Positions 25,569-58,135 of a stretch of DNA of 64,000 nucleotides are shown here, in pieces. The notes under the pieces were generated by a model that ran no database searches, had not been told where the DNA came from, and saw only the letters and a list, made by a program, of their open reading frames with translations. How positions within the stretch are numbered: the stretch's first letter is position 1; the number at the start of each line of letters is the position of its first letter. Source of the DNA: Tricharina praecox (taxonomy: Eukaryota); contig NW_026250404.1 in NCBI RefSeq assembly GCF_024521635.1, positions 2,046,001 to 2,110,000 of the forward strand. Direction: 5' to 3'. Position numbers and translations under genes: made by a program.

Positions 25569-25610
<42 letters not shown>

Positions 25611-25663
25611 CGGAAAGGAAGATCAGCCCCTACAGCTAGTTAGCCAGCGCAGCAGAACCTACC
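22864..25663 (+). promoter_or_regulatory. Putative very long 5' leader with two short uORFs (24116-24127 MSR*; 24766-24804 MTVLIIISLSGC*)
   Basis: Manual scan finds only two + strand ATGs in 2.8 kb while CAT is frequent; contains A19 (25053-25071) and an (ACA)n tract at ~25565-25610. Confidence 0.55.
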
Positions 25664-28272
25664 ATGAGAATTGGTAGCCTTCTCAACGATGGGCCCCCCT
25701 CGCCGACGGGCATCACTGCTCCCGCCACAGATTCTGCCACGCCTCACCCTCCATCGACCACCACTTCTTCCTCCTCCTCCTCCCACCAAACTGGTGCTAG
25801 GAATCCCGAGCCACGTCGGCTCGTGGGTCAAGCCACTGGCCTTATTAAGGAGCCTCTCGTCCACCATGGTAACGGTACAACATCGATACCATCTTCGACG
25901 TCCTCGCCTGTGCCAGCTTCGTCCTCAAACCCCCACATGATGTCGAACCTGCCGTATTCGCCATACCAACAGGCTCCGACTGTGTATCGTGAGCACACTG
26001 CGTCTTCCCGAAGTCCGTACAGTGAACCTTCCATCGCCGCTTCGACGGCGGCTGCTGGCTCACTGGAGAAATCCATGCTGCAGCAACACCAGCCCAACAG
26101 TACGTGGTTCGGGGGAAAGGCTATTGCGAGTGGTGGTGGTACGACTTCAGCAGCCCCGACCTTTCTTGGCCATGGCAACAGAGACCAGCAACAACCACAG
26201 CAACAACAACAGCAGCAACAACAGCATCAGCAACAACAGCATCAGCATCAGCATCAGCAACAACAGCATCAGCATCAGCAACAACACCACCAGCAGCAAC
26301 AGTCACTGCCTCGTCAACAGCAACAGAGGGCATTGCCGCCCTTCACATCTTTCGTAAACATGCAGCAACAACAGCCGGCAATGCCGGTCGAAGGCTCGAT
26401 ATCTCCACGGTCAACTGCTCACCAACCACCCCATGGTGGCCAGGGAACTGGTGGAGCCGGAAGCACGAGTTACTTCCCCAGCACCTCGTACGCGCCGCAA
26501 TACGCTCAATCGAGACCCAGGTCGTATGGTCAGCCTCAATATCAACCACAACACCAACCCCCGATACATGCGTACGCACCACCAACCGGCCAGTCCTCCG
26601 GGAGTGGCGGTGGGACCGCCGATCCATTGATGCGGTTTGCCGATGTAGCGATGGAGAATGCTACGCTTGGAGGTCGTCGGAGCCTCGAGGAGGTACTGGC
26701 AGTGGAGGTGCTCACGGGGCGGGGTGTAGTTGGGGGATGCATTGATGAGGGACGGAAGCAACGGGGTGGAAGGAATTCCAGCATCAATATAGAGTACGGT
26801 TCAGCTTTTTTCTTCTTTTTTGTTTGCACGTTCTGTTCCGACCTTGCTGACGAGCGTTGTACAGTCCGGCATTGAGGATGGCTACCACTCAAGAGGCACG
26901 CACTTCATCAATGGCAACGCAGACAGTAGATGATGCACCGCTGTTCCGTCCATCGCCGGAGCCCTCAACGCCCACCGGCTCATCATCGTCCGGAACAATC
27001 GTTGAAGCCCCCACACTGGCCAATAGACCGCCAGCAGTTGGCGGTAGTAGTTCGTCAGCCACCCACGAGTTCCTGAACGAAGAGCCAAAATGCTCTTACT
27101 GCGCCGGCTGCATGACGGAATCCCCGCTCCGAAAAGTGGTCTCTCACATTTTCGGCCGGAACAAACTCTCGACGCGGCAAATCCCCAAGAACGTGTGGGT
27201 CTACTACTGCCGAAAACATTACCAACGATCACGATACCGGAACCCTCGGGGCTTCGCCAGACAACAAGTACAGCTGGTCCGACGGCAGTGTGAGCGGCTG
27301 GAGCAGTGGGGCGGCGTCAGACAGTGGGTGATCAAGGTCCGTCGACGGGAGGAGCTGAGGATGAACCGGGAGGGTGACAACGCAGAGGATATCGACGACG
27401 TCGAGGATATCGAGGGTGATGATGGTGCCGCGGTGGTGGTGGACGACGAGATGGACGGCAACAGCGAGCTCGTGGTCAGCGGCGAGAGCAGCCGACGCTC
27501 CTCGACCGCCACACCTACACGACGAAGAAGCTCCGCCGGTGGTGGCTCGAACTGGCTCATGAAGTACACTGGCCCCGAGAGGACGATCGAAGACGTCTAT
27601 AAGCTCTTGGATAAAATCGAAGTCGAGGTGCAGCAGAACGGCGGGAAGTTCCCCGACGTCGAATTACTGCCGAACGTGGACTTGGCACTGGCGGTATCGA
27701 TAGGCGTCAAAAATAAGCCACACTCGGACGGGGACACTGGCGACGATGATGGCGGGCAGGACGCGGCGGGTGGCCAGAGTGGTGGGTCACCCAGGTCCCG
27801 GAAGAGACATCGTGCACCTACCGATGGCGGCACTCGCGACAGCAACAGCGGTATGGCCAGCAAAAAGGCCCGAGGATCGGACAAGCGAGGGGGAGCAGCA
27901 GACAAGGAACGAGCTTCGGATGCCGATTCGAACTATTCCATCAGTCCCCGAACCCGCACGCCCACATCCATGGATCCCTTCACCCAACACGGCTACGACC
28001 GCTCTTTCAGCAGCAGTAACGAATACCAATCGCCCCCTCTGCTAGGAGATACCAGCCACTCACCCTCGTCCGACGATAGTCACGGCTCCTCGTCCTGGGG
28101 TGGGAGAAACGCAAATAGCCCCCCATTCCCACACCAGTATCACCACCACCATCACCAACGCGGCGAATACATAATGCGCTCATTGGCGTCCCCCCATCAA
28201 CAGCCGTCCACATCGAGTGGACCGCAACAATTGGACCTAAGGACGTTTGGAGGATCGCTGACGGCCGTTTGA
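25664..28272 (+). CDS. ~845-aa polyQ/H low-complexity protein with a conserved fungal 'SHIFGRNK...WVYYCRKHYQRSRYR' domain (sometimes labelled ORP1-like); putative regulator
   Basis: Two long ORFs joined in frame by intron 26794-26864 (GTACGG, branch GCTGAC, CAG); good start context ACCATG; polyQ block ~26186-26325; basic NLS-like 'RSRKRHR' and 'SKKAR'. Confidence 0.8.
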
Positions 28273-29432
28273 GTGAGACGTGCATACACAGTTCGATATC
28301 ATTCTTGCTTTTGTATTCTTTTTTTTTACAGTTCTTTCCTTACCTCCCATTTCATGAAAAGCCAAACATCGGATCATTTTCTTTCTCTCTTTTTCCATTC
28401 GGCCATTGACAGTAGTACAAGCACGAGTATATCACGGCGTTTTTTCTTCTTTTTCTTTTTCTTCTCCTTGTTCTTCCTTCCATTTATTTCTTTCTTTCCA
28501 TGTCATATTCGCCTGCATTCTCTATTTTCTTTCCGCATTTCCTTTCCGTATTAAGACAAGCAGGATAGCAAACCATGGTTGAAGGTGTTTTTTTTGTGGG
28601 GGGCAGCATACTAGGTTGGGTCGGCCTGGTCGGCCTGGTGGGTCTGGTGGGTGGCGGTGGGGTGCGGTGGGCGAGGGGGGCTCTCTTTTGTTTGGTTTGG
28701 TTCGGTTGGGGGTATTAAACATTACAACGATCATGCACGCGCATACTTTACTTACATCTTACTTAAACAACAACAATTTCTGTCTGGGGCGGGGATGGGG
28801 ATGGGGATGGGGAGGGGAGGTGGTGGTTGGGAGGAAGAGGGTGAGGGTGAGGGTGAGGGTGAGAGGGTGAGAGGGGCGAGCGGGCGGGGGAGAGAGGAGA
28901 GAGCAATTGATACAATTGATATGATCTTTTTTTTGTTGCGGAATTTTGATGACACCTCGCGAGAAAATCGGGCTGGAAGACATAAGAGTGATGGGACGTG
29001 ATTGGCTGACGGCTGACGGAGGCTGACGGAGGCTGACGGAGATCTCTGGAGAGATTGACTACATACCAGCGATTGCGAATTTACCATCAGCTAGATGGCA
29101 GCACCACCACCATGCCAACCAAATACCCCAGCGATCCATCCAGCCAGTCTTGTAGTCTCGGTGCGGCTTGATCCCACTCCACTCCATTCCACTCTGCACA
29201 GCTTCCAAGTTCCCGTCCGGCTCTGCTCCCTATGTAGTGAGGTACCGGTACGTATGTATCGTGTTCGCAACTACAGTCAACTGTCAAGTGACCGCCGCCG
29301 CCCGGCGTGATCCATCATGCGACAACACGGTTCGGTTTCGTGCTCATCAATGGCCAAACGGATCCGATCCGATCCGAGATCGAACGAATCACACAGCGGC
29401 AACCTGTTACCTACCTACCTCGGTGCCCCACC

Positions 29433-36813: not shown

Positions 36814-39734
36814 ATGTCGTCACAGTCGTGGAGAGAGGAGGAACGTGACCCCTTCTCCGAGGCACACATCTACTATGGCTCTGAACCTTGTAACTCAAAT
36901 GGCGGGTTGCCCCGAAGGGGATTGTCACAAGTAAGTTCCTGTCTCTTCTGTGCTGCCGTCACACGAAACACCCTTGTTCCTGTGCAAATGAAGTTCGGGA
37001 CGAGTTGAAAGAGCTAAAGGCGATCTCGCGAGCTGGGGGCCCTGGAGTTCAATCTATCTGTTTCGTTATCTCGAGTGTTTGGCTGACATTCAATTCTCAA
37101 TTTCAGGCTTACGAGTACAATGGTCCTCCGAGAACCACATCTCTCGAACACAAGCCTTACCGACGAGGATCACTTGGTGCGGACCACCCAGAGGAGACCC
37201 ATCCGCGTTTCGGCCGTAACTATTGCTGACATCTGACAGATGCATTCTCGCATCACCACCCGAGACAATTTGTAATCAATGTCGCGGAGACGATGGCTCG
37301 CCTCATTGCAGCAGAAGACACGGATGGTAATTTCCAGATCACCATTGAAGACGGTGGTCCAAAGGTACGTGACACGTCTTGGAAGCTTTCCTCCACCCCA
37401 CCCCTATACTGAACTGGTGTATTGTAGGTGATATCTTTGGGAACGGCAAACAGCGGCGGATATAAACGACACGAACTCCGAGGCACTTATGCGTTAGCCA
37501 ATCTAATGCAGGAGTTGACGATTGCGGAGGAATTCGGCAGAAAGCACATCATTCTCGATGAGGCGCGTCTGACGGAAAATCCTGTCTCCCGGTTGAGCCG
37601 TCTAATCAAGACCTCTTTCTGGAACGGATTGACCCGCCGTATCGACGGAAGTGTGATTGAATCAGTCACCAAAGATCCGAAAGCAGAGAGGATGGAGGAC
37701 CCACGGCCAAGGATCTATGTGCCGAAGCGGGCGCCCGAGCAGCTGATATACTATCAGAATGTGGCGAGAGATTATCCTGAGTTGAATCTCGACGTCGTTC
37801 AGCTGCCGGAAGTCATCGATGCCCAGTTCACATACAGTCAGTTGTTCCCCAAGCACCACATAGATTGATGGCTGACCTTCCTTCCCAGGCATCAATGAGA
37901 AGCCCGGTCTATTGGCGCTCGCAATGGAAAAGGTCGTTGGTCCCGATGGAAAAGAAGAACTAAAGGGATGGCCTTTCGTCGTTCCAGGCGGTCGGTTCAA
38001 TGAGCTCTATGGTATGTCTCGCTGCCCCCTTCAGCTTACTATTTCCAAAACCAAATCTCGGCGTGCTAACATCTTCCAGGCTGGGACTCCTACATGATCT
38101 CACTTGGACTGTTGCTCGACGGCAAGGAGCAACTGGCCAAGTCCATGGTGATCAATTTCTGTTTTGAAATTGAGCATTACGGAAAGATCTTGAACGCGAA
38201 CAGGTCATACTACTTGTCGCGTTCTCAGCCGCCGTTCCTGACCGATATGGCCCTCCGCGTGTACAGGAAAATTAAGCATGAGCCTGGCGCGTTGGAGTTC
38301 CTGAGGACCAGCATCCTTGCCGCGATAAAGGAATATTTTACCGTGTGGATGGCGGCACCTCGCTACGACCCGGCCACTGGTTTGAGTCGGTATCGTCCGG
38401 ATGGCATCGGAATTCCCCCAGAAACCGAACCAAGCCACTTTGATTCCACCTTGCAGCCATATGCTGAGATGTACCGGATGACGATTGACGAGTTCATCAC
38501 AGCTTACAACGAGGGCCACGTCCAAGAACCCGCCCTGGACGAATACTTCCTACATGACCGTGCTGTCCGGGAGTCGGGCCATGACACGACCTACCGGCTG
38601 GAGGGATGCTGTGCCGACTTAGCGACGATCGATCTCAACTCGTTACTCTACAAGTACGAGATTGATATCGCGAAGGTTATCCATGAGCATTTCAACGATA
38701 GTCTGATCATTCCGGCCGAGTTCTCTGTGCCCGGCTTCCCCGAATTGCGAGTGGGAACCAAGTCGACTTCCGCTCAATGGGATCGTAGATCACGGAAGCG
38801 TAAAATCCTGATCAACAGGTACCTCTGGAACGGACAGAAGGGAATGTACTTCGACTATGACACCATAAACCAGAGGCAGATGAACTACGAGTCGGCCACT
38901 GTCTTTTGGGCCATGTGGGCTGGCGTCGCGTCCCCCCGCCAGGCCGCCAAATTGGTAGAGGTGGCCATCCCCAAGTTCGAAGAGCTCGGCGGTCTCGCGA
39001 GCGGGACCGAAGCGAGTCGCGGTCCGCTGGGCATCGATCGACCCACCAGGCAATGGGACTATCCATAGTGAGTTGGCCCTGCTGCAATTCCCCGAGTGTT
39101 CTTCGTACTGACATGCATGTAGCGGATGGGCTCCACAGCAGATGCTCGCGTGGGTGGGATTGGAGCGATACGGCTATCATGAGGAAGCGAAGCGATTGGC
39201 GTACCGCTGGCTGTTCATGATCACGAAGGCCTTCGTCGACTACCACGGAGTCGTCGTCGAGAAGTATGACGTGACAAGGCCGGTCGATCCACACAGAGTC
39301 GACGCCGAATATGGAAACCAGGGTTTGGATTTCCGTGGCGTTGCGAGAGAAGGGTATGCATCGCAAACTTCCCTTATGCCCTTCCGCCTATGCTAACGTC
39401 CTTATCCAGTTTCGGATGGGTGAATGCGTCGTACCAACTAGGACTGACTATCGTTGGTTCTCATGCGAAGCGCGCCCTAGGTGCCTGTATTCCGCCAGAG
39501 CCGTTCTTCAACGCCACTGCGGCCGAGATGGAGGCGTTGATGAACGAGTTCGGCGCCAGTCCTCCACAGACGCCTGGTGCGAGCGATGGCAACCCCTTCA
39601 ACGACGGAGATCTTCTCACTCCGGCTGTGGTGGCTGTCGTTGATCCTTTCGACATCCTCGCGCAGTCCAATCAGGCTACGCCAGTCACAGAGCACATTAA
39701 TCCGATTGAGCAGCTGAGGGGAATCGCAGCATAG
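36814..39734 (+). CDS. NTH1: Neutral trehalase (GH37)
   Basis: Ca-binding '[17 protein letters not shown]', PKA-type 'RRGS', GH37 signatures '[15 protein letters not shown]', '[10 protein letters not shown]', '[10 protein letters not shown]', 'QWDYP|..GWAP', 'FGWVNAS'; about 7 introns (first 36931-37107). Confidence 0.95.
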
Positions 39735-40631
39735 AGTGGGGGTGGTATCGGGTTGGAGATTAAAAGGTTGTTCTGTACATTCCGGCGTCTTTTTTCAGCA
39801 TCATCGGCTTTGTTTTCTCGCGAAACGCATTTTCTCTGGTCATTTTCAGAAGCTAGGGACGCATTTGCTATACATTGTTCTCGTTCTCGGCTCTTTCTTT
39901 TTTTACTTTGCAAGTTGTACTAGACATCAGGAAGTTGGTTTTTCATTTTTTTTCACGCTTTACGATTTACCCTGTGTATTTGTCCTGTTACTTTGTTCTG
40001 TTGTTCTATTCTCATACTGAGGATCTATGGCGGCGGATCGGTGGGCGCCGAATAGTCTCTCTTGTCTTTGTAGATGGTTGATGTAACTGATTGTCCGTGC
40101 TCTTCGGCCGGGAGGACCGTTCGACGGATGTGCGAAGTGGAACACAGTTTATATCAGACTCTCGCACGGACCACAGTTTGCGTGAAGAGATTTGCCCCCA
40201 ATACATCGCCGTTGCCGAAATGTCCACAGCTTTTCCCCCGAGCCGGCAAACCACATATGGGCGAGGTTGTGTGTCAAGAAGTGCCCTTTACCGTTGCCGG
40301 TTCGGTTGGACCGGTCTGTACTGGTGTTTTGATCGTCCCGCTTTGCTTCATGGATCCGCTCGTATCACCACACCTTCACAGGGATAGGCGCGCCGCCCCC
40401 GGTCCAGCCAATCGAAACACCATTCCTTCTGCCACCACCACCACACGACATACGCTTTACCTATCACCTCCCATCTATCAATCATCTCTCTGCATATCCC
40501 CCCCGCCTTCGCCCCCCACAGCTCGTATCTCCCCCTCCCCGCTGCTGCCTGCCTAGCTTCCCCGCTATGCGCACGAATTGCTGCCGCAGGCATTGAAACG
40601 GATCCCGCAGCACACCGTCCACCCCAATCCA

Positions 40632-43600
40632 ATGCTTCCCACCACACCAGCCGCAGCAAAGCCCCACCGGCAGCCAATTATCTACCCGGCCACTGCTGGC
40701 CCTGCTGGGGTGAACGCCAATGGCCAAACATTCATTCTGTATCCAGAAAGCTCCTCATCGGTCCCCGCGGCGGGGCACATCCATCATCATCACCACCAGC
40801 TCCACCACTTCCCACCACCAGCAGCACCGCCCTCGCATCAACTAGCCATGCTGCGTCCGACGATGCCGATGAATCCCGCCTGGATGCCGTACCAACAGGC
40901 CCTGCCCACACCGGACCACAACCACCACCACAACCACGACCACCACCAGGAGGATCCGAAATCGTCGCCCCACAGGAGTCAGTGGTACCCGGATGTGTAC
41001 TCGAAATCCTTCATCTCGGATCATGAGCGCTCCATCAATATCTACCCCGCGTCGACGGTCAGGGCCCAGCCGCCACCGCGTGTGGACTTCGCCCGGTTCG
41101 TTGAGAACTTCGCGGGGAAGGGATTCCTGTCGCAATGGGTGCCCGCTGTGATGCCGATGGAGATGGCGACAAACGCTGTGGCGGTTAATAGTCGCCCCAG
41201 TGGCAGTGGGGGCGACAAGAGAGCGGGGAAGAATAAGAGGATCTCTATCAGATCACCGGCTACCGGAATGGAGATCGCGATCGGTCCGTTCGCGCTTGAT
41301 TCCGAAAACTACGGGGCACATTTCTTGAAGCTCCTGGCGGAGGAAATCGCGGCGGATGATACGATCAGTAAGAGCTATAATCTGTACAATGCTACGATCA
41401 TTCCGCAGGATCCTAGCCAGTTTCTGTTTCAACTGCAGCTGCCGGGGTTAAGGGAGAATACACCGATGGTCCAGCTTGGAGATCTGATTAAACTCAGGCA
41501 GGTCAAGCCGGGAATGCCAGGGTACTATCCGGTGTTTACGGGTTACGAGCACGAGACGTATGTTTACGGAATCGATAAGACGGTGGGATATGTGGTCCTG
41601 AGGGCGGATGGGCTATGGCTGGAGCCGGGAGGGAAGTTCAATGTGATTTTCGGAGTTCAGGAACAGCGGTGGGAGGGATGCAAGCGGGCGATTGCCAACA
41701 TTGGGAATTCGCTGCCGATTCCCGGCCAGAAGAAAACCGAGGATGGCACCGATACCGCCGAGCGTCCGTACTTGAAAAGGATGCTATTTCCGGAGAAGTC
41801 GGATGGGAAGATGCAGCACACGCTCACCCGAGGGGTATTTGAGACGCACTGGATCGATAGGGAGTTGAATTACGAGCAGGTAAGTGCACAAAATCTACCC
41901 CTCTCTTTGAACTGATTCCATAGGAGTCAATGGTATTTTGACTGTTGGACTACATTTTTTGTTGGACGGTCATGGATGTATTTGGTAGTTAATGGGATGA
42001 TCGAGTTTTACTGGTTTTGGTACGAAGTGAGATGTGTACTAAACCGCGTGTGTGTGTCCTGCAGCATAAAGCTGTTGATTCGATCCTGAGGCAGGATTAC
42101 GGGAGCGTTCCTTTCATAATATCCGGTCCTCCTGGGACGGGAAAGACGAAGACGATCGTCGAAGCAGGTACATATCTCGATTCCACCCTCCGTTGATGCA
42201 TCGTTCAATCGGCTGACTTGATACCGAATAGTCCTTCAGCTCATCTATGCACCTCGAACTCCAAGGCACCACATACTGCTCTGCGCCCCTTCGCAGGAGG
42301 CTGCTGACACTCTTGCCCTCCGGCTAGCCCAGCATCTCGACCCGACGGTGCTTTTCCGCCTGCAATCGAACACCCGGACGTTCTCGGAGGTCCCCATCAG
42401 GCTGATGACCTACACCCACATCGAGAACGACATGTTTTCGATTCCGGAGTGGAAAAAGCTCATGAGATTCCGGGTTGTCGTCTGCTCATGCCGCGATGCG
42501 GATATCCTGGTCCAGGCGCGATGTACAAATCGCGATCTCGGCCGTTGGGAGAAGAGCGTGGTAGACTCGTTGCGTGGAGTCGCCGAGGACTCGCCGGATT
42601 TTGTGGAGGTCGGGGAGAGTGTGCGTCTCCATTGGTCCGCTCTACTCGTCGACGAGGCTGCTCAGGGAATGGAGCCTGAGATTGTCATTCCTTTGTCGGT
42701 TGTTGCGCCACCAGAAGAGGCCAGCAGTGATAAACCCATCGTGGTCATGGTCGGGGACCAGCGTCAGCTCGGACCCATCACCGTGAAGGATGGGGAGCTG
42801 AGGATAAGTGCTTTCGAGAGACTGTTTGCTAGGCCGATCTACAGCGAACACCCGTGGCGAAGGGAGCTATATTCGACTTTTGGTGGCATCAAAGGTCGTT
42901 CGGAGGAGGTGACGGCAGATCTTCGAGCAAAGATGCTAGTAGGTTATCCATCATTTCCATGTAAACTGTGGTTACTGACGGAGGTGTAGCCGTGTCTTTA
43001 CCCAGCGTTCACCAACTTGGTCCGGAATTACCGCTCTCACGCAGCCATCCTTGCGGTACCTTCGGCGTTCTTCTACAACGACACCTTGATCCCCGAAGCT
43101 ACGGATTCAAGCGCCCTGGAAGGCTGGACCGGTTGGAAAGGATCCCCCGTCATGCCCGTAAAGCTGATACTCAACTCCGGCCTTGACGAATCTCACGAAG
43201 AAGCCATTTCATTCTACAATCTCCGCGAGATTAAGCTTGCGGTTGAAACCGTTCAGTCCCTTCTGTCGCCCGATTTCTGGCCTGAGGACGAAAACGGGAA
43301 AAATACAGTGCCCATCACTCCGCACCAAATCGCCGTGATGTCGCCTTTCCGAGAACAGGTTAAGCGCCTCCGAAAGGCCTTTAGGGCAGCGGATCTGAAT
43401 AAGGTCAACGTCGGACCAGTCGAGGCTTACCAGGGTGCCGAATATCGCTTCGTCATCATCTGCACTACGCGAGCCAGGGAGCGGTTCCTCAAGAATGACA
43501 GAGAGAAAGGCGCCGGCCTGATATTCGAGGAGAGGCGCGCCAATGTTGCCTTAACCCGAGCTAAGCAAGGCCTGGTCGTCATTGGCAACCCGTGGATCCT

Positions 43601-44021
43601 TGAGCGCGACAGCATCTGGCGGGAATGGATGAGCTTCGCCTGGCGCCACGACGCCGTCGACTTTGATTCCGAGGAAGACTTCAGCCCCAGGGCCAAGCAC
43701 AAGGAGAAGGTGTTCACTCCCGACCTCTCGGCTTCACCCGCCTCCTCCTCCGCCACTTCTGCCTGCGCCACACCAAAAACCTACGCTTCCGTTCAATCCG
43801 CGGGGAAATCTAAGCCTGTCAATGCATGGCGACCGCGCGGGGATGTCGAGTCGACAGGTCTGTTTAGTAGACTTGAGACGGCGTTGGTGTTCAGGTCCAA
43901 GGCGAGGGATGGCGCAGTGTTCGGATTCAATTCAGGATGGGATGAGGACGATCCCATGTTTCTGGCGGGAATTGCGGCGGAGGAGGAGGTTACGAGGCAG
44001 ATTGAGATCAATGGGTGGTAA
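40632..44021 (+). CDS. UPF1-like SF1B RNA helicase, MOV10/SDE3/Armitage-like
   Basis: 'LNYEQ|HKAV', Walker A 'GPPGTGKT', 'LLCAPSQEAAD', 'LVDEAAQGMEPE', 'GDQRQLGP', 'LVRNYRSH', 'VEAYQGAE', 'NVALTRAK'; introns 41880-42064, 42168-42231, 42939-42989. Confidence 0.88.
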
Positions 44022-46897: not shown

Positions 46898-48724
46898 TTA
46901 GTCCAAGTTGATGGGGTGGTTCTTCCTGATTTGCGCGCCGTGCTTGTAGATCAACCAGATGGCCGGCACGAGGGCCAAACTGATGAAGCCGAGCAAGCTG
47001 TTTCCCCATCCGAGACCGAGCTTTGCGTACATGGGACCTCCAGCAAGCGGGAGGACTGCGCCGACCAAACTCCTGGTTGCCGTCAATGCGGCGACGGCGG
47101 AGGCGGCGTGCTCAACGAAGGCGTCGATCATGTAGGTCTGTCATTTCCATCCGTTAGGTTTTTGTAAAGAAGGGGGGGCGATAATAATGATGAAGGGAGA
47201 ACTAACCTGAACCGGCACAAAAATACCCATCATTCCAATTCCGAAGGGCATGATTCCAATGATGGGAACGATCCAGTGCGTCGCCTTGTCGGCCGACCAT
47301 CCGTACCAGAAGAGGGATATGGGGATCAAGCAAGCGAAGCCGGCTGACAGCGGCAGGCGCATCTCCGGTTCGGCGACGCCGTTATTGCGCTTCGCCAACG
47401 TGACCACCATCCTGTCATTTGTGACAGCCATGATCGCCAGCCCGATGAAGAATCCGATGCCGATGCCGAGGTATGCGAGGCCGGTGATCTCGGGCTCCCA
47501 GCCGTACTGCTGCGCAAAGACGAGGGTCATGCTGGTGAAGAGGAGATACAGGATTCCGTAGATCAACGACATGTAGATGCACATCAGAGCGCTGATGGGC
47601 GAGCGCGCGATAAGCTTGAGAGGCCGCGTCAAGCCGTTTCTCAACACCTGACGGGGCGTACGGCCGGGGTGACTCTTGTCGTACCAACTGATTAGGTCCG
47701 GGTTACCGGTCTCCTTCCTGAGACGAGCAGTCTTGCGGGCGATGAGGACGTGGGGGTTGGACTCTTCGTTGACCACAAAGATCAGCGTAGTGATGAGTCC
47801 TCCGGCAATCAGGAGAACCCAGTAAACCCATCTCCATCCGGCCCGCTGCGCCAGAAATCCACCGGCGATGGGGCCAACAACGGGACCGAATAGTGGGCCA
47901 AGGGAGTACATTGCTGTTGCCATGCCTCGCTGGTCGGGTGCGAAGAGGTCCGAGATGACTCCACCGCCGATAGTGAGACATCCAGAACCACCCACTCCAG
48001 CAAGGAAACGGAACGCAATCAGTGATCCTAGGTTGGGCGCAAGGGCGCACCCAATCTGCCAGACTACGAAGAAGATGTTACCACTATCTAGCACGCGTCT
48101 CCGCCCGTAGATCTCCGACAGTGGTGAGAGAAGTAGGGGACCTACGGCCCACCCTAGAACGAAAACCGAAACGACGAACGAGGAAAGTTCGCTGGAGTGA
48201 TTGTTGAACTCTTTGTTCATGAACGAGATTCCCGGCGCAAACATGGCGGAAGCCAGAGGACTAGGTAGCTGCAAGTCAGTAAACACGGAAGAATATGGCA
48301 CGGCGGGGTGACCGGATTGCGCAACGCACCTGATGAACGTGATCATTGAAACCAGACTAAGCATAGAGAACTTCTTCTTATCCGTCCAGTTGCGAGGGTT
48401 TTCCGGATCATCCTCACTATCCCATCCCACGATATTCCGGGAAAGATCTGTGAGGGGGTGCTCGTAATTGGTCTCCTCGACTTGCGACTTGTGACTCTTG
48501 TTAGTCGAGGTGCGTTTGAGTTCAAGTGATCGGCCGTGTTCGAGGTCCTTGCCATGGGCGAGCGGCGACTGTTGCGGTTTGATCTCTTCAAGCTCCATAC
48601 CGCTGCTACCTTGGGCCACTGAATGTGCCAGCGAACTGGTGGATGAGTTCGGGTCGACCATGGTGGAAGAGCTTGTCTGTGGTGGAGATACGGGGATTTT
48701 TTCGTTCGTACGATCCATGGTCAT
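46898..48724 (-). CDS. MFS multidrug/polyamine transporter, DHA1 (Tpo1/Flr1-like) family
   Basis: 'WDSEDDPENPRNW', motif A 'PLSEIYGRR', 'GPVVGPIAGGFL', 'PEMRLP', multiple TM segments; introns near 48329-48265 and 47207-47139. Confidence 0.92.
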
Positions 48725-49858
48725 TCCACTCTCCGAAGGAGGACGGAAGAAGGTGAAAGATCTTATAAATCCAGGCGATGCAAGGTGGGGGGCGGTGAGG
48801 AAATACTGGTTAGCAGGATAATATCCAAGGCGTCCCAGCTATGTGATTATGGTTGCTGCGGATCCCTGAACCGTGCCGGTGAAGCGAGACTCGAAGGGAA
48901 ATGTTGCGTCAAGATTCCGGTAATTTCTATCGATCAGGAGCTGCACCGAAGGGAATTGAACTGGCTTTAATAATCGAACAGATGAACCGAATAAAACGGG
49001 AATGCGGCGTGATGGTCAGAACAGGAACGAGGGACGTGACGACATCCACCTTGAAGGAGCGAATGAATAAATGTAGATGGACGGTTCGAGAAAGCTATTG
49101 GGGGTGGGTGTGACAAAAGGGCAGATAAACCCGGGCCTTAAGGCAGGGCCAGCGGCCGTTCGTGATGGTGACAGCTTGGGGAAGCGGATTCCGCCAGCAT
49201 CTCGGCTTCCGCCCGCAGCTCGGTTTCCGCCAGGGTCTTTGTGCGACATCAGGATAAGGGTTTCTCCAGCTCAATTCGCACCCCACAACAGCACGGATAA
49301 TGCATGCTAGCTGTGACGGATCTGACATGATTCGACGCGCGGGCTCCGAAAACGAGAGGGCGGAGCGGGAGACGTCTAGGTATGCATAGAGTAGTGCACT
49401 TGGAGCGGGTGCCGGGGAATAGGTGGGTATCCGAGCGCAGCTACACAGATAGGCGGCGTTCCATCACGGTCCGTTCCGACCGGTTTCACGTCGGGCAGAG
49501 TTATGCATACGCCGTGGCTTGGGGGTGCCAAGGTTCGGAGTAGGCATCTTCCACGTGTCCGCCACCATGAAGATCTCTGCGATACCCATCGTATCTACAT
49601 CGTGTGCCGGGTAGCCGGATGTTTAATTTGCTATGTATGCAGCGGAGTATCAGCCGAGTATCAGCCGTTGCCGACGTGTTTTGTGTTCATGCCAAGCTCT
49701 GCCCTCATAAACGAGTTCGTTTGGCTGAATCTTAACCTACATACGAACAAGCTTCTGAAATTCACACATATGTAGACACCATTTAAGTTTATATTCCGGC
49801 GGGTGCCGCCATAGTTAACGCCGCCCTGTTTATGTATACGAATGCTCTCGTGCGCTTC

Positions 49859-50961
49859 CTACGCTAACTTTTCCGCCAAAATCTTCTCACTCAGTGCCCA
49901 CAGACTATCGGTTAGTGTTTGATCCTGCGCCTGCTTTGACGGCTCTGTCACCTTGTTCGGAGGCGTAATCTGTTGACCTCGGCGTTAGCACCTTTCCTCC
50001 CTCCCCGAAAGCCCAGGCACCTGGCATCACTCACATATTGGCCGGTAATATTTTCTTTCTTGACATCCTCCGCAGTGGCGGCAAACAGCGCGGGTAGACA
50101 ACCATCGGTGATAGGGTCCTTCATGAACGTCCTCACGATGGGCGTCGCAACCTTCCCGAGGAGACCATACGCCTCCTCAGCCTGATCTGGTTGCGTAGTG
50201 TTCACGGCGCCCGGATGCGTCGCATTAGCGAAGATATTAGCCACCTCGCCGGGCCCGAGCCTTCCGTCGTTGAGCCGCTGCACGAGCCCCCGGATGAACA
50301 GGATCTGCGCGAGTTTTGAGCGGTTGTAGAGATACGACGGGCCGATGTCCGTGTTGATCTCGTCGACGCTGGCGAATTTGACGGAGGACGGTGCGGAGCT
50401 GTGGAGACTCGATGCTTGGACGACGATGCGGGCGTCGTGGTGCTCCTTCGCCGTCTTGCGGAGCAGCGGGAGGAGCGTCAGGATCAGATGCATCTGGGCA
50501 AGGTGGTTGATCTGGAAGTGGGTGTCTATATCTGGGGGTCAACATCTGGGTTCGAAACGGAGGAAGGCCAGACCGATGGGTATCTACATACCGAGACCGT
50601 CTTTCGACACATTATAAACGCCCACGCCACAGCCGGCATTGCATACCAGCGCATCCAGTCGAGTAAGCTTCGAGCTTAGTTCCTTCGCAGTCTTATCGAC
50701 CTGTCGGAGATCTCGGAGGTCGCAGTTGATGTACTCGATCTTGGACACATCGCCGTACTTTTGGAGCTCTTGTTTGGCAAGCGTGGCGTGCTCGGGAAGC
50801 TCGGAGAGCATGTACACACGCTCGGGGTTGTGGGAAAGGAGGTTTGCGGTGATACCGAAGCCGATACCGGCAGTACCGCCGGTAACGAGGAAGACCTTCG
50901 ACACGAGCTGGGGGATTGTGGAGCAGCTCCAGGTCGGCGTAGAGGAGAAAATCGAGGCCAT
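49859..50961 (-). CDS. Short-chain dehydrogenase/reductase (retinol dehydrogenase/WWOX-like)
   Basis: 'TGGTAGIG' Rossmann motif, 'LVCNAG', catalytic 'YNRSK', 'HPGAVNT', C-terminal 'LWALSEK'; two introns. Confidence 0.92.
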
Positions 50962-51727
50962 TGTGTGTATGTAACTGTCTGTCTGTCTGTCTGTCTGATG
51001 GAGCAATGCGTGAGCTTGGTGAAGCGTATGTAGAACCCATCGACGAAGCGTTTTTGTATGAAAGTAATTCTCGCGCCTACGTCAGATGCGTGTCGTACAT
51101 CTCGGACCCTGAGGTGGTTCCTGCTCAAGTCCGATCTCAAGCCTCGTCGCTCCATCTCTTGGCATCGTCCGGTGATCTACGGTACGATAATCCATGACGC
51201 ACTCCGGATCTTGTGTAACACTGGGCACTCTGAATCTTGTGCAACACAGAGCACTCTAGATCCACCCACAGACGTCTGACATCATGAAGTTTACTTTTTG
51301 GAGGCTCTCTATATGTAACTCAACAATTTTGTGGACTGCATTTTAGAATAACTCAAAACCTGCAGACCTAGGTTTGGCCCCAGAAGATACATACACACCA
51401 ACGCGTCCGACGCCGCTCGGGTAATCCTGCCGCCCAAACTCTCGAAGAGATATGTAGAGTTCCGAGGATCCGGCCATCTACGCGAGTGATTTTCAAAGTC
51501 GATCGGTGTCGGCGGACCGCCACACGGACATGAAGTAACATCCCGTAGGGATTATGATTAGATTATTTTAACAGAAAAAGAAGAAGAAGAAAAAGAAGAG
51601 AATTTCCAAACAAAATCTCCACACTAAAGCGTGTCGCCTCCACGGGAATTCCGCCTATTTCATTCACCGGTAGCCGTTATTCTGAACTACTGGTCTACGA
51701 TCTTGGACTTTAATCAGCCAGCTGGTT

Positions 51728-54700
51728 TTACGTTTCAAGGCATTGATATAGGTACTCACAAGTAGTCGGGATTGCCAGCGATTCACCCATTCTTCGCGGA
51801 AATCCACTTATCAGAACACTATCGGCGGATGTTCCCGTCAACGAAAGATAGATTCGCGCGCGCGCCGAACGTCCCAGCAATCGAAACGCGATGGGCAATT
51901 GGAAAGGATCCATGTTGCCGGGCGTGATGATGTTGCGGTATACGTCCGGATGTGACTTGCGGCTGAGGCGTGCGTATTGGCCGTGCGGGATGCCGAGAAG
52001 CCAGGCTGATTGGTAGAGGCGAAGTGCTAGCTTTTGCAGTGCTCGGGAGTCCGGCGGTAGTCGACACAGTATATATCCTGCCAGAAGTGTTGGTTAGAAT
52101 AAGCATGTACCAGAATCCAGTGCATCATCCTCCACCTACCTTCTACTGTGACATGTCCGTTTACGTCCACTTCAATCAGAGTCTCCTCAAAGTAAAAAAG
52201 CGACGCGACCAGGGTATTAGCCACGACCTGGAGCTCAGCGGATATGCTAGGCAAGTACGAGGTATTGACATGCTCGAAGAGCTGATCCATTTTCTCGACC
52301 TCGTCGAATTTGGGCAGGCCAATGCCAGTTTCGGCCAGATCGGGGTTTAGTCGAACATACTTTCTCTGCTTATCCTGGTCTCCTCTCTCGATGGCCAATT
52401 TTCCAATAAAACTCTTCCAAGCCCGTTGGCCGTTCGTACTGTCCTCTATGACTGTGTTAACAAACTTGAGCATTCTTTTAACGAACAATGAGATCCCCCG
52501 CTGATCCGCTTTAGGTACTACGGGCGGAGGTGGTACGGATGAATCGAACGCCGTTCCTATGGACAGGAGTATGTCTGGGTCTCGATTCTTGGATTCCGGC
52601 CAAAGCATTTTGCGCTCTTCGTTTGCCAACTCCGCGGGGTTGTTGAATTTGATGGCTCCATCGATGAAGGAGAGAGAACTGGATTTATGATAGAACGGTC
52701 TAAAGAACGTCGGCGCTGCGGTGGTGGCTCGGAGTCTTGATGGGGAAAAAAAAGTTAGCGCTTCTGAGTGATGCAGGAAAAGATTGACGAATCCTTACGC
52801 TTCCCACGTCTTAACCTCCTTATCCCGATTGGCCGCTCTCAGAAACTTGCATGGAGTGCCTGCGACGTCTGATGGGAGGTGGAATCGCGGTTAGTATCGC
52901 CCATAAACCATCAGTTTGGGGAGAAACGTACCACAATCCGTCCGTACCCTATTATAATTGGCGAGCAGAAAAGCCGTTTGGTCGGATTCTACACACGTAG
53001 TTACTCCCACGCGGGTTGCAACCGGGAAAGCCTGTGAACTGGAAGCCTGAGCACCGAAGAGTGGTTCCTGGCCGAATATCGACTTCAGGGCTTTTTCCAG
53101 TGACCCAGTTCTGTATCTGCTGTGGAAATATCCTTCAATCAATGTACCCAGAATAGGGGTGCCGGTGAGCACACGTTTCGTGAACGCCTTTGCTGCGAGA
53201 GTTTTGAAGTCTTCCAGGCATTCTTCGATTTCAACTTGCCGTATTCCCACGCCAAACGCTACTATTCCACCGCCGCTTTTCTCATGTCAGCCTTCCGGCC
53301 GGGCAGGAAACCTGTCGAGCTTACCTGGTTCCGATAATCAAATCGAAAAATTGTCGTATCGGTATACCAAGATCGATGCACCGCTCAAGTTGAGCCAAGA
53401 TTGCCAATTGCACAACAGACCGCATACCACCGCTAGTGTCCGAGATTGTGTCAGCTCCGCTTCTTTGAAGATGGAATAGCTGCTCATACCCGTCGAGTGT
53501 CAGAATTCGCAGCCCCGCAGTTGCTGGTTTCGACGCGATTATCCAAGGGGTCGGCCATGGATAGTCCACGTTGCAGCACAGGGGACAGACGGTGATTTCT
53601 CTCCGGCCTCCATTGATCGCTTCGGAGTAGTTAACAAAGCATCTGTCGCAGATGATATGGCCACAATACAGGATGTGCATCGGAACGCAATACAAGCATG
53701 AAAAGCAAGTAGTGTGACTCCCGGTCGCACCTGTTCCCCAAATATGTGTGTAGCTCCGTAACGTGTGATCGCGGTGCAACATGGCGACTACCTTTTCTTC
53801 GTCTTCATCCAAGCCTTCGGGTATATAAGTCTTCCTCTTCAGGTCCAGGAATTTGGAGAGGCGATACTTGAGCTTCACCAGGAAGTCCCTCCTTTGCTGT
53901 ACCTCGTTCGTATGGAAAGACGAAATATATTCGCCCTTTTCGAAGACCTTCCCTGTTTCGTCTTGGTGTCCTTTGTCATGGCATACGGCAACATTGACGC
54001 ATCGGTTTCCACGTTTGTCCCGTTTCTCACAACGCCAATGGTTGTTGTAAAAGTGAGTGAGTGTCTTCGCACAGATCTTCTTGTAGCGAAGGAAGACGGA
54101 CTCCATATGAACTGTGTCTATTGGTTAGATAGTAACGGTAATTCAAGCAAAAGGTAGTAGCACTCACAACGACCCGGAAGAAGTAATCTTGTCGCATTCA
54201 GCAACATGCTGGATGCCACCAGGCGAGAGAGCTCCACGGACAACTGTTCTCCTTCCAAATGCGGCTCTTTCTCCATGAACAAAGTGGCCGCCTCGATGAT
54301 GTGATCTTCGAAAGTCTTCCCGACTCGATTCTTCCGGGCGGCAGCCCTCAAAAAATTGAACGGCCTGTTTGCATGCGTGCAGAAATGCTCAAAGGACGCC
54401 CGAAGATATTGCTGCAGCTCGGAGCTCGAGAACAACATGCCAGACTGCTCCCGCCGTTTCCGGGAGTCCCATGCCGCTTGCTTGATCTCCCTGTACAAGC
54501 TGTCGTACTGAGTGTAGATGAGATGCGGCGGCCTGTCGGAGCGCGGAATACAGACGATTTTCACGCTGCTGAAATAGCATGAAAGAAGGTCTCCGAGTGA
54601 GTTAATCGCCTTCCCCCTTTCCTTCCACTGCTCCGCCAGCCGCCTCAATGACCCGGGCTCGTGGATTGCTGCGCTGAGGTCACCAAGCACCTTTGCTGTT

Positions 54701-56058
54701 GCTATGTCAGTGTCCCACCAGTTGAGAGAATGGGTGGTATTGTTCTAGTAACTTTTGTCAGTGAGTGCATTCTCGCCCAAAATTCGGACTTAAATAGTAG
54801 TATCATGCCTGGTTTTCTAGCGCGTTGACCGCCACTACAACGTGGGGAAGGGTGGGCTGGTTGACGGATTGTTCGAAGGCACCCTCTGCCCAATCGATGA
54901 GGGTTTGGATGTGGTTTTCGAGTGTTCTATCGGTGTCAGCTCCGATGTGGTCTTTGGAGAAGGAAACTCATGATCATAGTATGTACCGGAGCTCCTTCGA
55001 CACGAAGACGACAATGTCCGAGAAAGTGAATAGGACTCGCGGATAAAGTGTTGCGACCAGGTTCTCTCTCGTCACCTTCCCGTCCGCCCACTTGATCTCA
55101 TACTGTTGTGAGCGCTGTGCGTACATCATCTTACGCTGCTGCATCGGCGACGACCATACAGCCGGCGCGACCTGCGTTTGCCGGCTTTCGTAAATCGCCG
55201 GAGTGTTGTTTTTTGTCTTCCGCGAAGGCTCGCTGCCACTCGGTAGCGCAGCCGACGACAAAACACCCCGCAGGCGCTGCATAGGAGTTGATGATCGTGA
55301 CGTTTGCGGGTAATGGTATGGCTGCACTGCGGATCCGTCCTGAATGTCGCTTTCCATGGGCTTGCGGTTCCCGCCCTGTAGTCCTTCGCAGTCGGCGTAG
55401 TAGATCGGCCGCTTCGAGCGGTACGTTTCAGGATCGGGAAACAGATGGACATCGCCGCTCGTTGGAATATGAAGGTTGGCTCCAACTACGGGCGTGACCT
55501 CGGAGGAGTGTTTCAACTATGCGATATGGCGGTCAGTCAACAGGAAATGCTCCTCGGCAGCAGAGGCTAGAGTGGTTATCGCCTATTTCGCACCTTCATC
55601 AGAGCGTTGATCAATGTGCTCTTCCCGGCTCCCGTAGCACCCACGAAAGTGACAATGCACGGATACTGCTTCCGTGCTGCAGTCTCCTTACTGAACGCGA
55701 GATCATCGAACCGCTTGAAGTCCTGCAACATCCGCTTCCCGCTCTCATCGGCCGTGACTCCGAACCACTTTGTCGAAATATTCTCGATATGCCGCTCGGT
55801 CTGATTGACCAGATCCTCCTCGGGCCGCAGTATATCATGGATGAGCTTTGCGACGCCCAGCTCCGTTTTCTCGTGTTGTTCGGCCGTGGGTTTCCTCCGG
55901 CGGTGGAGCGGTTGCACCCTCCAGCAGTCCTCGCAGTACACCGCCTTGCATTCGCTGCACCAGGAGAGGCTTGGGTGGTCTTCATCCGGTTCTTCCTGGT
56001 AAACGCATTCGGCCGCCTCCCAGAGGAGGTGGGTGCTGGCTGTCGAGAGTGCTGACAT
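51728..56058 (-). CDS. Large multidomain protein: B-box-like Zn finger + P-loop GTPase-like domain + Cys/His cluster + RING-HC + patatin-like phospholipase
   Basis: 'CSECKAVYCEDCW..H..H'; 'GATGAGKST', 'PTSGDVH', 'YADCEG'; RING 'CFSC-x9-CGH-x2-CDRC-x~17-CPLC'; patatin 'LDG|GGMR', 'GTS|GG', 'TAAPTFF', 'IDGA'. At least 9 introns (e.g. 55593-55517, 54808-54745, 53489-53433); exact 3' end uncertain. Confidence 0.85.
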
Positions 56059-58135
56059 CGCTGGATCCGGTGGGTTTGGAGGAATGCGACATGAGTCTCC
56101 ACGACGCGACAACCAGGGTACTCGGGCTTTACATATGCCTCTTTACTCCACGAAGAAAACGAGCGAGTCACTGCGTTTACGAGGCAGTGCGCGCTTTTCT
56201 GACTGAGCACTCGCCGCTGTGCGCAGCTGCCGGGAAAAAAGCAAACGTTAATGTTGGCCACCAACCATCGCGTAGGCAGCTGATCCGCACCCGTGTTGTC
56301 AGTCCCACATTATTCAGTAAGACTGGAGACAGCGAATCATACAAGAAGTGCCGAGCATACTTTATCTAAACTTCAGACTTGAGGTCTGCCTTGGTTTTCT
56401 CCGTTCTCGGATGCATGCACTGCGCACGGATTTCTACATACCCACATCAGCAACGTGAGGCAATGCTACCTATGTGCGCCCGCGGGCGGGTGTGATATCG
56501 GCAGCCGCCATCATTACTCTGATCTCCTCCGGGAGATTCCCCAGGAAATCTCAAGTTCCGATCCCTATACATAGTAGGTATGCAGCAGACAGCATCCCAA
56601 GCAGTCGCTAGTTAGGCTTCAAGTCGCATAAATGCTGGTGTTAAGAGAGTGCGGGGTAGCTACCCTGCTGCCTGGTATATATCCCGGGCACTACATAGAT
56701 GCGGTATGCCTGTTGACGATCGTTCGATGCTCGCTAAACGTAGCGAAACGCCAAAACCCGACTTAACTACCGCCGAGTCCATGAAACGATTATGTTTGGC
56801 CGTACATGGAAACTCTAGGTATTAGCATCTGTAGGTTGGGCGGTGCGGAAGTTCGGATCGTACGTACGGAAGGCTTGCTAGAGAGAGAGAGAGAGAGCAA
56901 GGAATTGAATTGACTGTCTGCTTGGTATCTAGAGATGTAAAAAGAGCGGACAACGTGGGCGCACGGTTTATATACGACAAAAACCAGAGATGCATGCAGT
57001 GCTATACAGAACAACACCTGTCTTCCAATCCTCGAGCTTTCTCTTCCCACATTGCGAATGGCCATTGCGTGTCATATATATCTTCTCCCACATTACGTGT
57101 CCTGGCTTTTGAGTTTGCCAGGCTAGCTGTGGCGACGCACATTTCTTCAGCATCCACCTAGGCATGTAGAGTAGATGTTGATGAAGTCCACTTGGGGGAG
57201 GGGAGTCTTTTCCAAGCGCTGTCCGCCAGCATGAAATCGTAGTGTACCGTATCCGTGGGCACCGGGGGATCCCCTAGTCAGCAGATGGACTACTGTTCTG
57301 TTTGATCCTCCTCATATCCAGCGCAAGCGAGACCATAAAGGACGTACACACATGTTACCGGTAGTACTTTTCTCCATTGACGGTTGATATGTACCCAATG
57401 TACCCACTACATTCCTCCTAAGTAGGAATGAAGGGCAACTTCCCCACAACGCCCTTCCGAATGCGGCAGAAACTGTACCTATGCTCACTGGGCCCAGTGC
57501 CACGGTCCAAGCCGCCCCCGTCGTCGCAGAGCTTTGTCTCGATATCTATGTATGACGCCATCGAGGGCTTGAGTTCAACCGCAGGAACGGACAATGTGAT
57601 TTCCTGCACGTGCACGCTCACGACGCACTGCGCACAGTGATGCTCGAGACGAGGCACATGTGCGAGGAGGACGGTAGTACATGAGTACATTAAATACTTG
57701 TGACCGGCAGCAACACTCAGCTACCTATACGATCTGAGCCAGCTGGGAGCTGAGGGTATCGGAAGGTTTTGGGGGGTTTTGGGGGGTTTTCTCGGAATTT
57801 TTGGACCTACTTAGGTATGGTGCACGGGATGTGACTCGTGCTTCGTTCCTGTGATGGGCCGTGGTTGCTAGATTAGCTAGGTATTCGAGATCTTCATTGC
57901 ACAGGACTCAGGGCTGTGGTTTTGACTGTCAAGGTTCGATTCTTGCTTCCCCTACTGTTACAGAACACTCGGAATTGGTATGACTACTATTAGTATTATC
58001 TTCTCAAGCTAGAAACCCGAGCGTATCAAGACACGATCCAACTCCTCAACCCCCCACTCCCCTCTAGCACTACTTCCTTCCGAAACTCCTACCCTCTCAT
58101 GCCACCCTGGTGAAAGATTCTGGCAGAGCATTCCA

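Follow-up and report, generated by a model that had tools for sequence, protein, structure and literature searches.

The minus strand of contig NW_026250404.1 of Tricharina praecox (assembly GCF_024521635.1) carries a gene of 11 exons within the 64,000-nucleotide stretch analysed here (positions 2,046,001 to 2,110,000 of the contig, hereafter the window). The gene encodes a protein of 1,261 residues, read from an ATG at 56058 to a stop codon at 51664–51666, a frame which was checked against the contigs assembled from two public sequencing runs of two studies, X1 and X2. The protein joins, in this order, a B-box-like finger, a large GTPase, a helical middle domain, a CCHH knuckle, a helical hairpin, a RING finger, a patatin domain and a small C-terminal domain. 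The parts of the gene and of its product, in positions of the window, are as follows.

51664–56058, minus strand: coding region, based on the splice joints in the X1 and X2 contigs, the open translation and collinear homologues
56058–55594, 55516–54987, 54926–54809 and 54744–54168, minus strand: exons 1 to 4, from contigs X1 and X2
54111–53490, 53432–53325, 53275–52932 and 52868–52799, minus strand: exons 5 to 8, from contigs X1 and X2
52735–52140, 52077–51760 and 51701–51664, minus strand: exons 9 to 11, from contigs X1 and X2
56280–56360, minus strand: intron of 81 nucleotides in the 5′ leader, with the joint of 56279 to 56361 in X1 and X2
55864–55983, minus strand: B-box-like zinc finger, residues 26–65, with C34, C37, C42, C45, H52 and H62
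54661–55785, minus strand: large GTPase domain, residues 92–399, with introns 1 to 3 inside (family hidden Markov model (HMM), 2.8e-83)
55615–55641, minus strand: P-loop G1 motif GATGAGKST, residues 140–148, read from the sequence
55382–55393, minus strand: G3 motif DCEG, residues 197–200, read from the sequence
54047–54651, minus strand: helical middle domain, residues 403–585, with intron 4 inside (family HMM, 5e-57; a helical bundle in the model)
53939–54046, minus strand: CCHH zinc knuckle, residues 586–621, with C591, C601, H608 and H612
53570–53719, minus strand: RING finger, residues 695–744, of C3HC4 type with eight ligands
52141–53530, minus strand: patatin domain and helical tail, residues 758–1143, with introns 5 to 8 inside (family HMM, 3.3e-98)
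51785–52077, minus strand: small alpha/beta C-terminal domain, residues 1144–1241, with strands and helices in the model

A single intron-free contig in each run (4,651 letters in X1 and 4,316 in X2) spans the gene from end to end. Eleven introns, ten in the coding region and one in the 5′ leader, are removed exactly in these contigs, which means that the contigs derive from RNA, and since one spliced contig per run extends across the gene, the GTPase half and the patatin half belong to one and the same mRNA. The depth of the contigs is no guide to expression rank. The joined exons give an open frame of 1,261 codons with zero internal stops. Over the gene, the X1 contig has no base difference from the window and the X2 contig has one (C>T at 54537). 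Runs X3–X5, which are soil metatranscriptomes, contained hardly any of the sampled words. The locus is thus a single transcribed gene with one mRNA. The earlier note on this DNA, made from the sequence alone, had proposed a fusion of B-box-like, GTPase, RING and patatin modules with an immune-like architecture, a proposal to be given up if the GTPase and patatin halves proved to be separate genes; both are on one spliced transcript.

In its general character the window resembles the chromosome of a filamentous fungus. The introns are short, 49–81 nucleotides, and have branch sites of the CTAAC or CTGAC type. Their borders are GT..AG on the gene strand, with the sole exception of intron 3 (54745–54808), which is GC..AG. 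The single spliced frame that had been read before holds, but its end at 51728 does not, as a further intron at 51702–51759 leads to the stop at 51664–51666; the exon borders were likewise amended, with exon 5 starting at 54111 and intron 3 being of the GC–AG kind. We note here that, with the GC donor of intron 3, a plain GT–AG gene caller would truncate or misjoin the GTPase domain. The exon with the ATG also has an in-frame stop further upstream, at 56143–56145. The X1 contig extends about 580 letters upstream of the leader intron, which suggests either a long leader or a contig that reaches into the upstream region. At the other end, a CT-rich simple repeat is found at 51565–51604, about 60–100 nucleotides 3′ of the stop codon. 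Reads or contigs appear cut there, and for this reason the 3′ end of the transcript lies beyond the data. The translation of the window is collinear over its full length with four long database homologues; together with the spliced form carried by the contigs, this places the motifs named by the earlier note beyond chance.

Searches of increasing depth revealed a family behind this gene. Exon 5 retrieved 8 proteins among 396 candidates, the best being 46% identical over the exon, and the N-terminal 580 residues of the best homologue retrieved 38 among 5,310 candidates, 34 of which have a Pfam Patatin match. In a profile search, 8,000 candidates were scored and 163 of them passed E≤1e-10. In a HMMER search of 1.84 billion cluster representatives with a profile of the N-terminal module, 2,186 were matched at E≤1e-3, 1,544 at E≤1e-10 and 661 at E≤1e-30, the last corresponding to a family of at least 661 clusters at 50% identity. 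The closest database relatives are 41–43% identical to the window protein. The named members come from 120 matches listed of the 163 and from the 38-protein search. All of them are presumably Pezizomycotina, two of the names having been looked up, and we take them to represent Pezizomycetes, Orbiliomycetes, Dothideomycetes, Eurotiomycetes, Sordariomycetes (many of them Xylariales), Leotiomycetes and Lecanoromycetes. There are one to four copies per species; among the matches listed, Wilcoxina mikolae has 4 and Xylaria curta 3. A single-copy, universally conserved ortholog, which had been named beforehand as an outcome at odds with an immune-like role, is not what was found: the family is multi-copy and the named organisms are all, as we take it, Pezizomycotina. 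Database labels are ‘hypothetical protein’, ‘FabD/lysophospholipase-like’, ‘PNPLA domain-containing’ and the like, and part of the protein is catalogued as DUF8392 (PF28431) in Pfam 38.1. A literature search outside subscription journals and supplements brought up nothing published on the family, DUF8392 or the locus tags of six homologues.

The architecture of the family was scanned with seven segment HMMs built from homologue alignments, against 276 fetched proteins and the window protein. All seven modules were found in order in 138 of the 277 sequences, and the window protein matches all seven. At least the GTPase, middle domain, patatin and C-terminal part are present in 193 of the 277, the window protein included, and the residue counts given below refer to these 193 members. 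The remaining sequences look truncated, the short entries breaking off where a contig or gene model stops. The long N- and C-terminal extensions of 22 homologues contain no Pfam domain but one SH3, and no WD, ANK, TPR or LRR repeats. With extensions nearly free of domains and the module order kept, the architecture is essentially fixed, unlike that of the shuffled NOD-like receptors (NLRs). By sequence comparison, this is a large Pezizomycotina family whose architecture appears almost unchanged. The SH3 domain belongs to P0186, a truncated member, and lies at residues 174–221 within its long N-terminal extension. Another addition was seen in P0255 of Chaetomium sp. (1,735 residues), where ankyrin repeats and SPRY follow the patatin part at residues 1452–1730. 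It is the sole repeat- or sensor-like addition seen, in one of five extra-long members, and may be a gene-model fusion.

When single exons of the window were compared with Pfam, all the matches were below cut-off because the introns split the domains. The MMR_HSR1 model, for instance, scored 19.6 bits against a cut-off of 21.9. No transmembrane segment is predicted in the window protein, whose best 19-residue hydropathy window, 1.59, falls in core strands; the product is predicted to be a soluble multidomain enzyme.

The three zinc modules were traced through their ligands. For the B-box-like finger, the CxxC-x4-CxxC..H..H pattern noticed earlier was recovered at residues 34–45, followed by H52 and H62. 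The Pfam models ANCHR-like_BBOX (19.4 bits, cut-off 27) and zf-B_box (16.8 bits) are below cut-off in the window, and the best match of the family N-terminal profile among Protein Data Bank sequences is the B-box1 of MID1/TRIM18 (2ffw, E 0.0025). Six B-box ligands are kept in 146–174 of the members, and the window copy is without the upstream first Cys pair of the finger, found in 133 and 107 members. The second Cys/His cluster reported before, at residues 591–612, is present, but the Cys of ‘AVCH’ is not a conserved ligand of it, this position being Gly in 110 members. The ligands of the knuckle are instead C591, C601, H608 and H612, which are kept in 182, 182, 185 and 184 members, respectively, and the CCHH ligands are invariant in the 32-sequence alignment A4. 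The RING finger is the complete C3HC4 type that had been proposed, with the spacing C699-x2-C702-x10-C713-x-H715-x2-C718-x2-C721-x17-C739-x2-C742. Its Pfam scores in the window are 21.2 bits against 27.9 for zf-RING_5 and 19.5 against 21 for zf-C3HC4, and the best homologue reaches 26.9 bits against the cut-off of 27.9. Seven RING ligands are kept in 175–180 members, while at the eighth position 123 members have His and 23 have Cys.

Structural comparison was employed for the class of the GTPase. A homologue from Geopyxis (P0007, residues 1–641), about 40% identical to the window protein, was modelled by AlphaFold2 from 39 aligned sequences with a predicted local distance difference test score (pLDDT) of 85.9 and a predicted template modelling score (pTM) of 0.87. 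In a Foldseek search of the Protein Data Bank, GBP2, GBP1, GBP5, atlastin-1, atlastin-3, RNF112, SMG9 and Sey1p came out on top, the top match with E 4.5e-7 and the others weaker, among 63 matches at E≤0.001. VIA-align, in which rows at most 1 Z unit apart count as tied, gave a Z of 22.2 for GBP5 (root-mean-square deviation (rmsd) of 3.5 over 268 residues), followed by GBP1 (21.9), atlastin-1 (21.4), SMG9 (20.2), RNF112 (19.4) and Sey1p (19.1), while the first of the ordinary GTPases, YsxC, scored 13.0 and HflX 12.5. The alignments with GBP, atlastin, SMG9, RNF112 and Sey1 cover 255–280 residues, and those with atlastin and RNF112 run on into the helical middle domain. Language-model features of a second homologue led to the GBP, RHD3 and SMG9 clusters. 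By the modelled fold of the homologue, the domain is a GTPase of the GBP/atlastin/RNF112/Sey1 large-GTPase class, which is the class that had been suggested from the DxEG-type G3 motif. The G1 motif GATGAGKST, the G2-like PTS and the G3 motif DCEG do lie in one spliced frame, the PTS as part of PTSGDVHLF at residues 173–181.

Nevertheless, several observations weigh against this assignment. The Pfam models GBP (PF02263) and RHD3_GTPase (PF05879) found no match at E≤0.01 in 11 homologues and none at E≤1 in the window exons. The N-terminal profile, run against Protein Data Bank sequences, met no GBP or atlastin but only P-loop-level matches and the MID1 B-box. As these sequence matches are absent, the class assignment rests on the model of a homologue and not on the window protein itself. 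In the window, G4 reads N366-A-L-E369, and the family pattern there is N-A-[TS]-[DE], in place of the RD motif of GBPs and atlastins. The fourth P-loop position, presumably the site of their arginine finger, is Gly in 166 members and Asn in 17, with no Arg. Since there is no P-loop Arg and G4 is not RD, the nucleotide preference and catalytic mechanism may differ from those of GBPs and atlastins. Membership in the GBP/atlastin class is therefore not complete: the fold, G1 and G3 are shared and the sequence models, G4 and the Arg differ. A complex prediction for two copies of the homologue GTPase domain with GTP scored 0.00 and gives no verdict. The domain also contains an insert at about residues 206–300, which is variable and probably disordered. 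Weak Pfam matches in the family are to MMR_HSR1 and RsgA_GTPase. The same two models are touched on in a methods passage of a preprint (bioRxiv 10.1101/2024.11.26.625400) on the orthogroup OG0000027, and that orthogroup may or may not be this family.

In the patatin domain of the window copy, the Ser-Asp dyad is intact, as is the Gly-rich oxyanion motif, so that the earlier reading of DGGG, GTSGG and DGA was borne out. The oxyanion motif is DGGGMR at residues 770–775. The nucleophile S807 is part of GTSGG at residues 805–809, its codon being divided by intron 6, and the catalytic D970 is part of DGA at residues 970–972, with its codon at 52660–52662. The Pfam model Patatin (PF01734) gives 22.6 bits against a cut-off of 27.7 with exon 9 alone, the domain being split by introns in the window, and 40–87 bits in all four long homologues tested. 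In addition, the last 729 residues of the homologue P0001 were modelled (pLDDT 83.4) and compared with 48,161 solved chains. Potato patatin (1oxw) was matched with a Z of 32.4 and an rmsd of 3.3 over 318 residues, followed by Acinetobacter CapV (30.9), iPLA2-beta (30.6) and CapE (29.6); VipD and ExoU gave 16.7 and 10.9. The titles of the solved entries include a CapV filament with cyclic GMP–AMP (cGAMP) and VipD in complex with Rab5. As modelled, the C-terminal half carries a patatin fold. The small C-terminal domain comprises the strands and helices at residues 580–676 of the modelled fragment and has weak matches only (Z about 6), to filamin and fibronectin type III-like chains. It is among the more variable parts of the protein, with a mean pairwise identity of 0.32 against 0.51 in the GTPase core.

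Conservation across the members separates the two catalytic halves. The P-loop Lys is kept in 184 of 184 ungapped rows, the Thr of the switch-I region in 180 members, the Asp, Glu and Gly of G3 in 190, 190 and 189, and the Asn of G4 in 189, with position 369 being Asp in 92 and Glu in 65. The patatin Ser is kept in 127 members only, being replaced by Gly in 25, Asp in 19 and Asn in 12, and the patatin Asp in 143. Mean pairwise identity is 0.51 in the GTPase core and 0.44 in the patatin core. The lowest values, 0.25–0.32, belong to the insert of the GTPase, the helical hairpin, the tail of the patatin domain and the C-terminal domain. From identity and the retention of key residues, the GTPase is the constrained core, and the lipase is dispensable in many paralogues. 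A midpoint-rooted FastTree of 1,151 columns, used for coarse statements only, showed that the dyad is lost by whole clades, among them a large Xylariales clade and a clade containing Teratosphaeria, and that the same fungal classes recur in several deep paralogue clades. The window protein groups with Pezizomycetes sequences, all of which have the dyad intact.

Each of these modules is known, and the combination of RING and GBP-like GTPase has a vertebrate precedent. GBPs, atlastins and Sey1 (RHD3) share with the fungal protein the G-domain fold followed by a helical domain and the D-x-E-G type of G3. Unlike them, the fungal protein has a G4 of the form N-A-x-[D/E], no P-loop Arg and no CaaX box or transmembrane anchor, and its GTPase is fused to B-box-like, RING and patatin modules. 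RNF112 (ZNF179, neurolastin), which is brain-specific in vertebrates, has, like the fungal protein, a C3HC4-type RING, a GTPase of the class and a helical middle domain. It differs in that its RING is ahead of the GTPase, it has no patatin, B-box or CCHH knuckle, and no similarity was detected at the sequence level. The abstract of one report (PMC12012479) describes dimer formation by the GTPase domain of RNF112 at the transition state, as well as ubiquitin ligase (E3) activity.

As to the lipase, potato patatin, iPLA2-beta, CapV and CapE share with the window protein the fold, the Ser-Asp dyad and a Gly-rich oxyanion motif. None of them is fused to a GTPase or RING, and roughly one in three members of the fungal family has lost the nucleophile. 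The cyclic nucleotide of a partner enzyme turns CapV on, whereas the presumed switch of the fungal protein sits in the same chain. VipD and ExoU share the patatin fold and differ as secreted bacterial effectors that use host factors, the relationship being distant. VipD is activated by GTP-bound Rab5 and ExoU by ubiquitin; by analogy only, the ingredients of both activations, a GTPase and a ubiquitin ligase, would be present in the fungal chain. In the literature searched, no account was met of a protein that joins a GBP-class GTPase and a patatin lipase.

Two further comparisons concern immune proteins. In TRIM proteins, as in the window protein, a B-box1-like finger and a RING occur together with a long helical hairpin, the last being seen in the model. 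The order is different: RING, B-box and coiled coil follow one another in TRIM, and in the window protein the B-box comes first and the RING about 650 residues later, with the GTPase between, while SPRY, the usual C-terminal domain of TRIM, was met in one fungal relative only. With permuted domain order, the TRIM parallel drawn earlier from B-box plus RING is a loose one. Patatin is, according to the preprint cited above (bioRxiv 10.1101/2024.11.26.625400), a canonical N-terminal effector domain of Sordariales NLRs. Fungal patatin NLRs resemble this family in that patatin and a P-loop NTPase are parts of one protein. In the family, however, the NTPase is GBP-like and not NACHT or NB-ARC, the patatin is C-terminal, and there are no WD, ANK or TPR repeats bar the one Ank and SPRY member. 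A reading of the window protein as an NLR or, more broadly, a signal transduction ATPase with numerous domains (STAND) was rejected: NB-ARC reached 11.9 bits against 23.5 in the window exons and covered the P-loop only, NACHT reached 16.5 bits against 26.7 in one homologue, and the fold is GBP-like. With no WD, ANK, TPR or LRR repeats in the window exons by Pfam, the protein is indeed not a classical NLR, as had been stated.

The explanation of the whole that we consider best, and to which we give an even chance, is a transcribed multidomain enzyme with nucleotide-gated assembly, RING and lipase outputs and a possible conditional role at membranes. Of this, the domain anatomy, the transcription, the family pattern and, on homologues, the two fold classes are results, and the mechanism is inferred. 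The GTPase domain would bind and hydrolyse a nucleotide and, like GBPs, atlastins and RNF112, would dimerise or assemble further in doing so. The RING fingers would thereby come close to each other and act as an E3, and the patatin domain would be positioned or released so as to hydrolyse membrane phospholipids. Precedents that bear on this are the RNF112 dimer, the CapV filament, VipD with Rab5 and the dependence of ExoU on ubiquitin. The GTPase would then be the conserved switch, and the lipase and the E3 its outputs. GTP-gated oligomerisation, phospholipase and E3 activities are reasonable expectations from the relatives of each module; the non-self or cell-death role that the earlier note added is an analogy, helped by circumstantial patterns in the family.

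The role which we would name first, with a confidence a little below even, is conditional defence, damage response or regulated cell death at membranes, and not core housekeeping. Variable copy number, the apparently patchy range of the names listed, the repeated loss of the dyad and the immune ties of the four module types suggest a defence role. In animals, cell-autonomous immunity depends centrally on GBP-class GTPases, as membrane fusion does on atlastin and Sey1. Patatin lipases serve as death effectors of the bacterial cyclic-oligonucleotide-based antiphage signalling system (CBASS) and as effector domains in fungal NLRs, and RING with B-box defines the TRIM restriction factors. A more specific form of it, which we regard as rather unlikely, is a fungal cell-autonomous executor of defence or death, in which the GTPase would polymerise on a membrane trigger and switch on the membrane-destroying phospholipase A and the ubiquitin ligase of its own chain, with dyad-less paralogues as regulators or decoys. 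Such a trigger may come from an invading microbe, a site of virus replication, damage to an organelle or incompatible fusion. Such an executor may be the fungal counterpart of animal GBP coats with TRIM/RNF-type ubiquitylation, and also of CapV.

A set of observations counts against defence and speaks for the strongest rival, which is housekeeping or developmental membrane remodelling with lipid homeostasis. The GTPase would here tether or reshape an organelle, the patatin would edit its phospholipids or neutral lipids and the RING would regulate turnover, with no role in non-self response or death. The housekeeping relatives atlastin, Sey1, SMG9 and RNF112 are structurally as close as the immune GBPs, as seen from the Z of atlastin-1, Sey1p and RNF112 given above. 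The family is deeply conserved, with named members from Orbiliomycetes and Pezizomycetes to Sordariomycetes. Its architecture is fixed and has no repeat-type or variable sensor, the seven-module order being kept in half of the sequences scanned and the others apparently truncated. The X1 and X2 contigs are near-identical, one base apart over the gene, and the neighbours are ordinary metabolic genes, with no cluster of immune-type genes seen in the window. As to patchiness, which would speak against housekeeping, no name from Aspergillus, Fusarium, Neurospora or yeast is among the 120 matches listed, a list which is word-filtered and not a genome survey. The same rival has to contend with the lack of any predicted transmembrane segment, with copies varying from one to four per species and the patchy range among the matches listed, with the loss of the patatin dyad repeatedly and by whole clades, and with a closest database relative just 41–43% identical to the window protein. 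On balance, we regard membrane remodelling and lipid homeostasis as a serious but doubtful account, and conditional defence or cell death at membranes remains the preferred one.

It is improbable that the GTPase-like domain is a non-hydrolysing scaffold, with lipase and E3 constitutively regulated and the nucleotide, possibly ATP, having a structural role only. SMG9, which has been argued to be non-hydrolysing, is matched with a Z of 20.2, and one matched SMG9 entry is described with AMPPNP (adenylyl imidodiphosphate). The lack of a P-loop arginine finger, a G4 that is not RD and the division of position 369 between Asp and Glu would also fit a scaffold. On the other hand, the invariant G1 Lys and the switch-I Thr and G3 Asp and Glu kept in 180 or more members do not, for with G1, the G2 region and G3 nearly invariant, selection on catalysis is expected and not on mere binding. 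An artefact, whether two adjacent genes (GTPase and RING-patatin) or a pseudogene, has a negligible chance and is ruled out at the locus by the spliced contigs and the open frame of 1,261 codons; some database entries are of the N-terminal part only (P0010, P0031 and P0042, for example), but these short entries stop at contig or model ends, and in alignment A1 the GTPase, middle, RING and patatin segments are each covered to 80% or more by 30 of the 39 sequences.

One conserved fungal polypeptide thus unites GBP-class GTPase, patatin lipase, RING and B-box-like modules. It offers a concrete and testable case in which one chain would hold a switch together with two effectors. The story of the GBPs could be carried over to fungi, a large GTPase could be shown to gate a lipase, and a reason could emerge for the retained GTPase and lost lipase dyad in a third of the family. 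Were the role a housekeeping one, the family would nonetheless represent a new kind of dynamin-superfamily enzyme.

The surroundings of the gene in the window include the following.

49948–51081, minus strand: short-chain dehydrogenase, the directly downstream neighbour
47141–48838, minus strand: major facilitator superfamily (MFS) transporter
about 40557–44021, plus strand: large gene of an Upf1/Sen1-type helicase (AAA_11 1.4e-12, AAA_12 1.5e-33)
38070–39068, plus strand: trehalase
4929–6612, plus strand: UV-damage endonuclease UvdE

The AAA_11/AAA_12 helicase gene is preceded by an open frame of 452 residues without a Pfam match. Two other long open frames on the plus strand, 25640–26875 and 26851–28272, lie in the region 23900–28300 and are likewise without a Pfam match. 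An unusually strong strand asymmetry is observed around these frames, with a GC skew of −0.26 at 24–26 kb and an AT skew of +0.20 at 26–28 kb.

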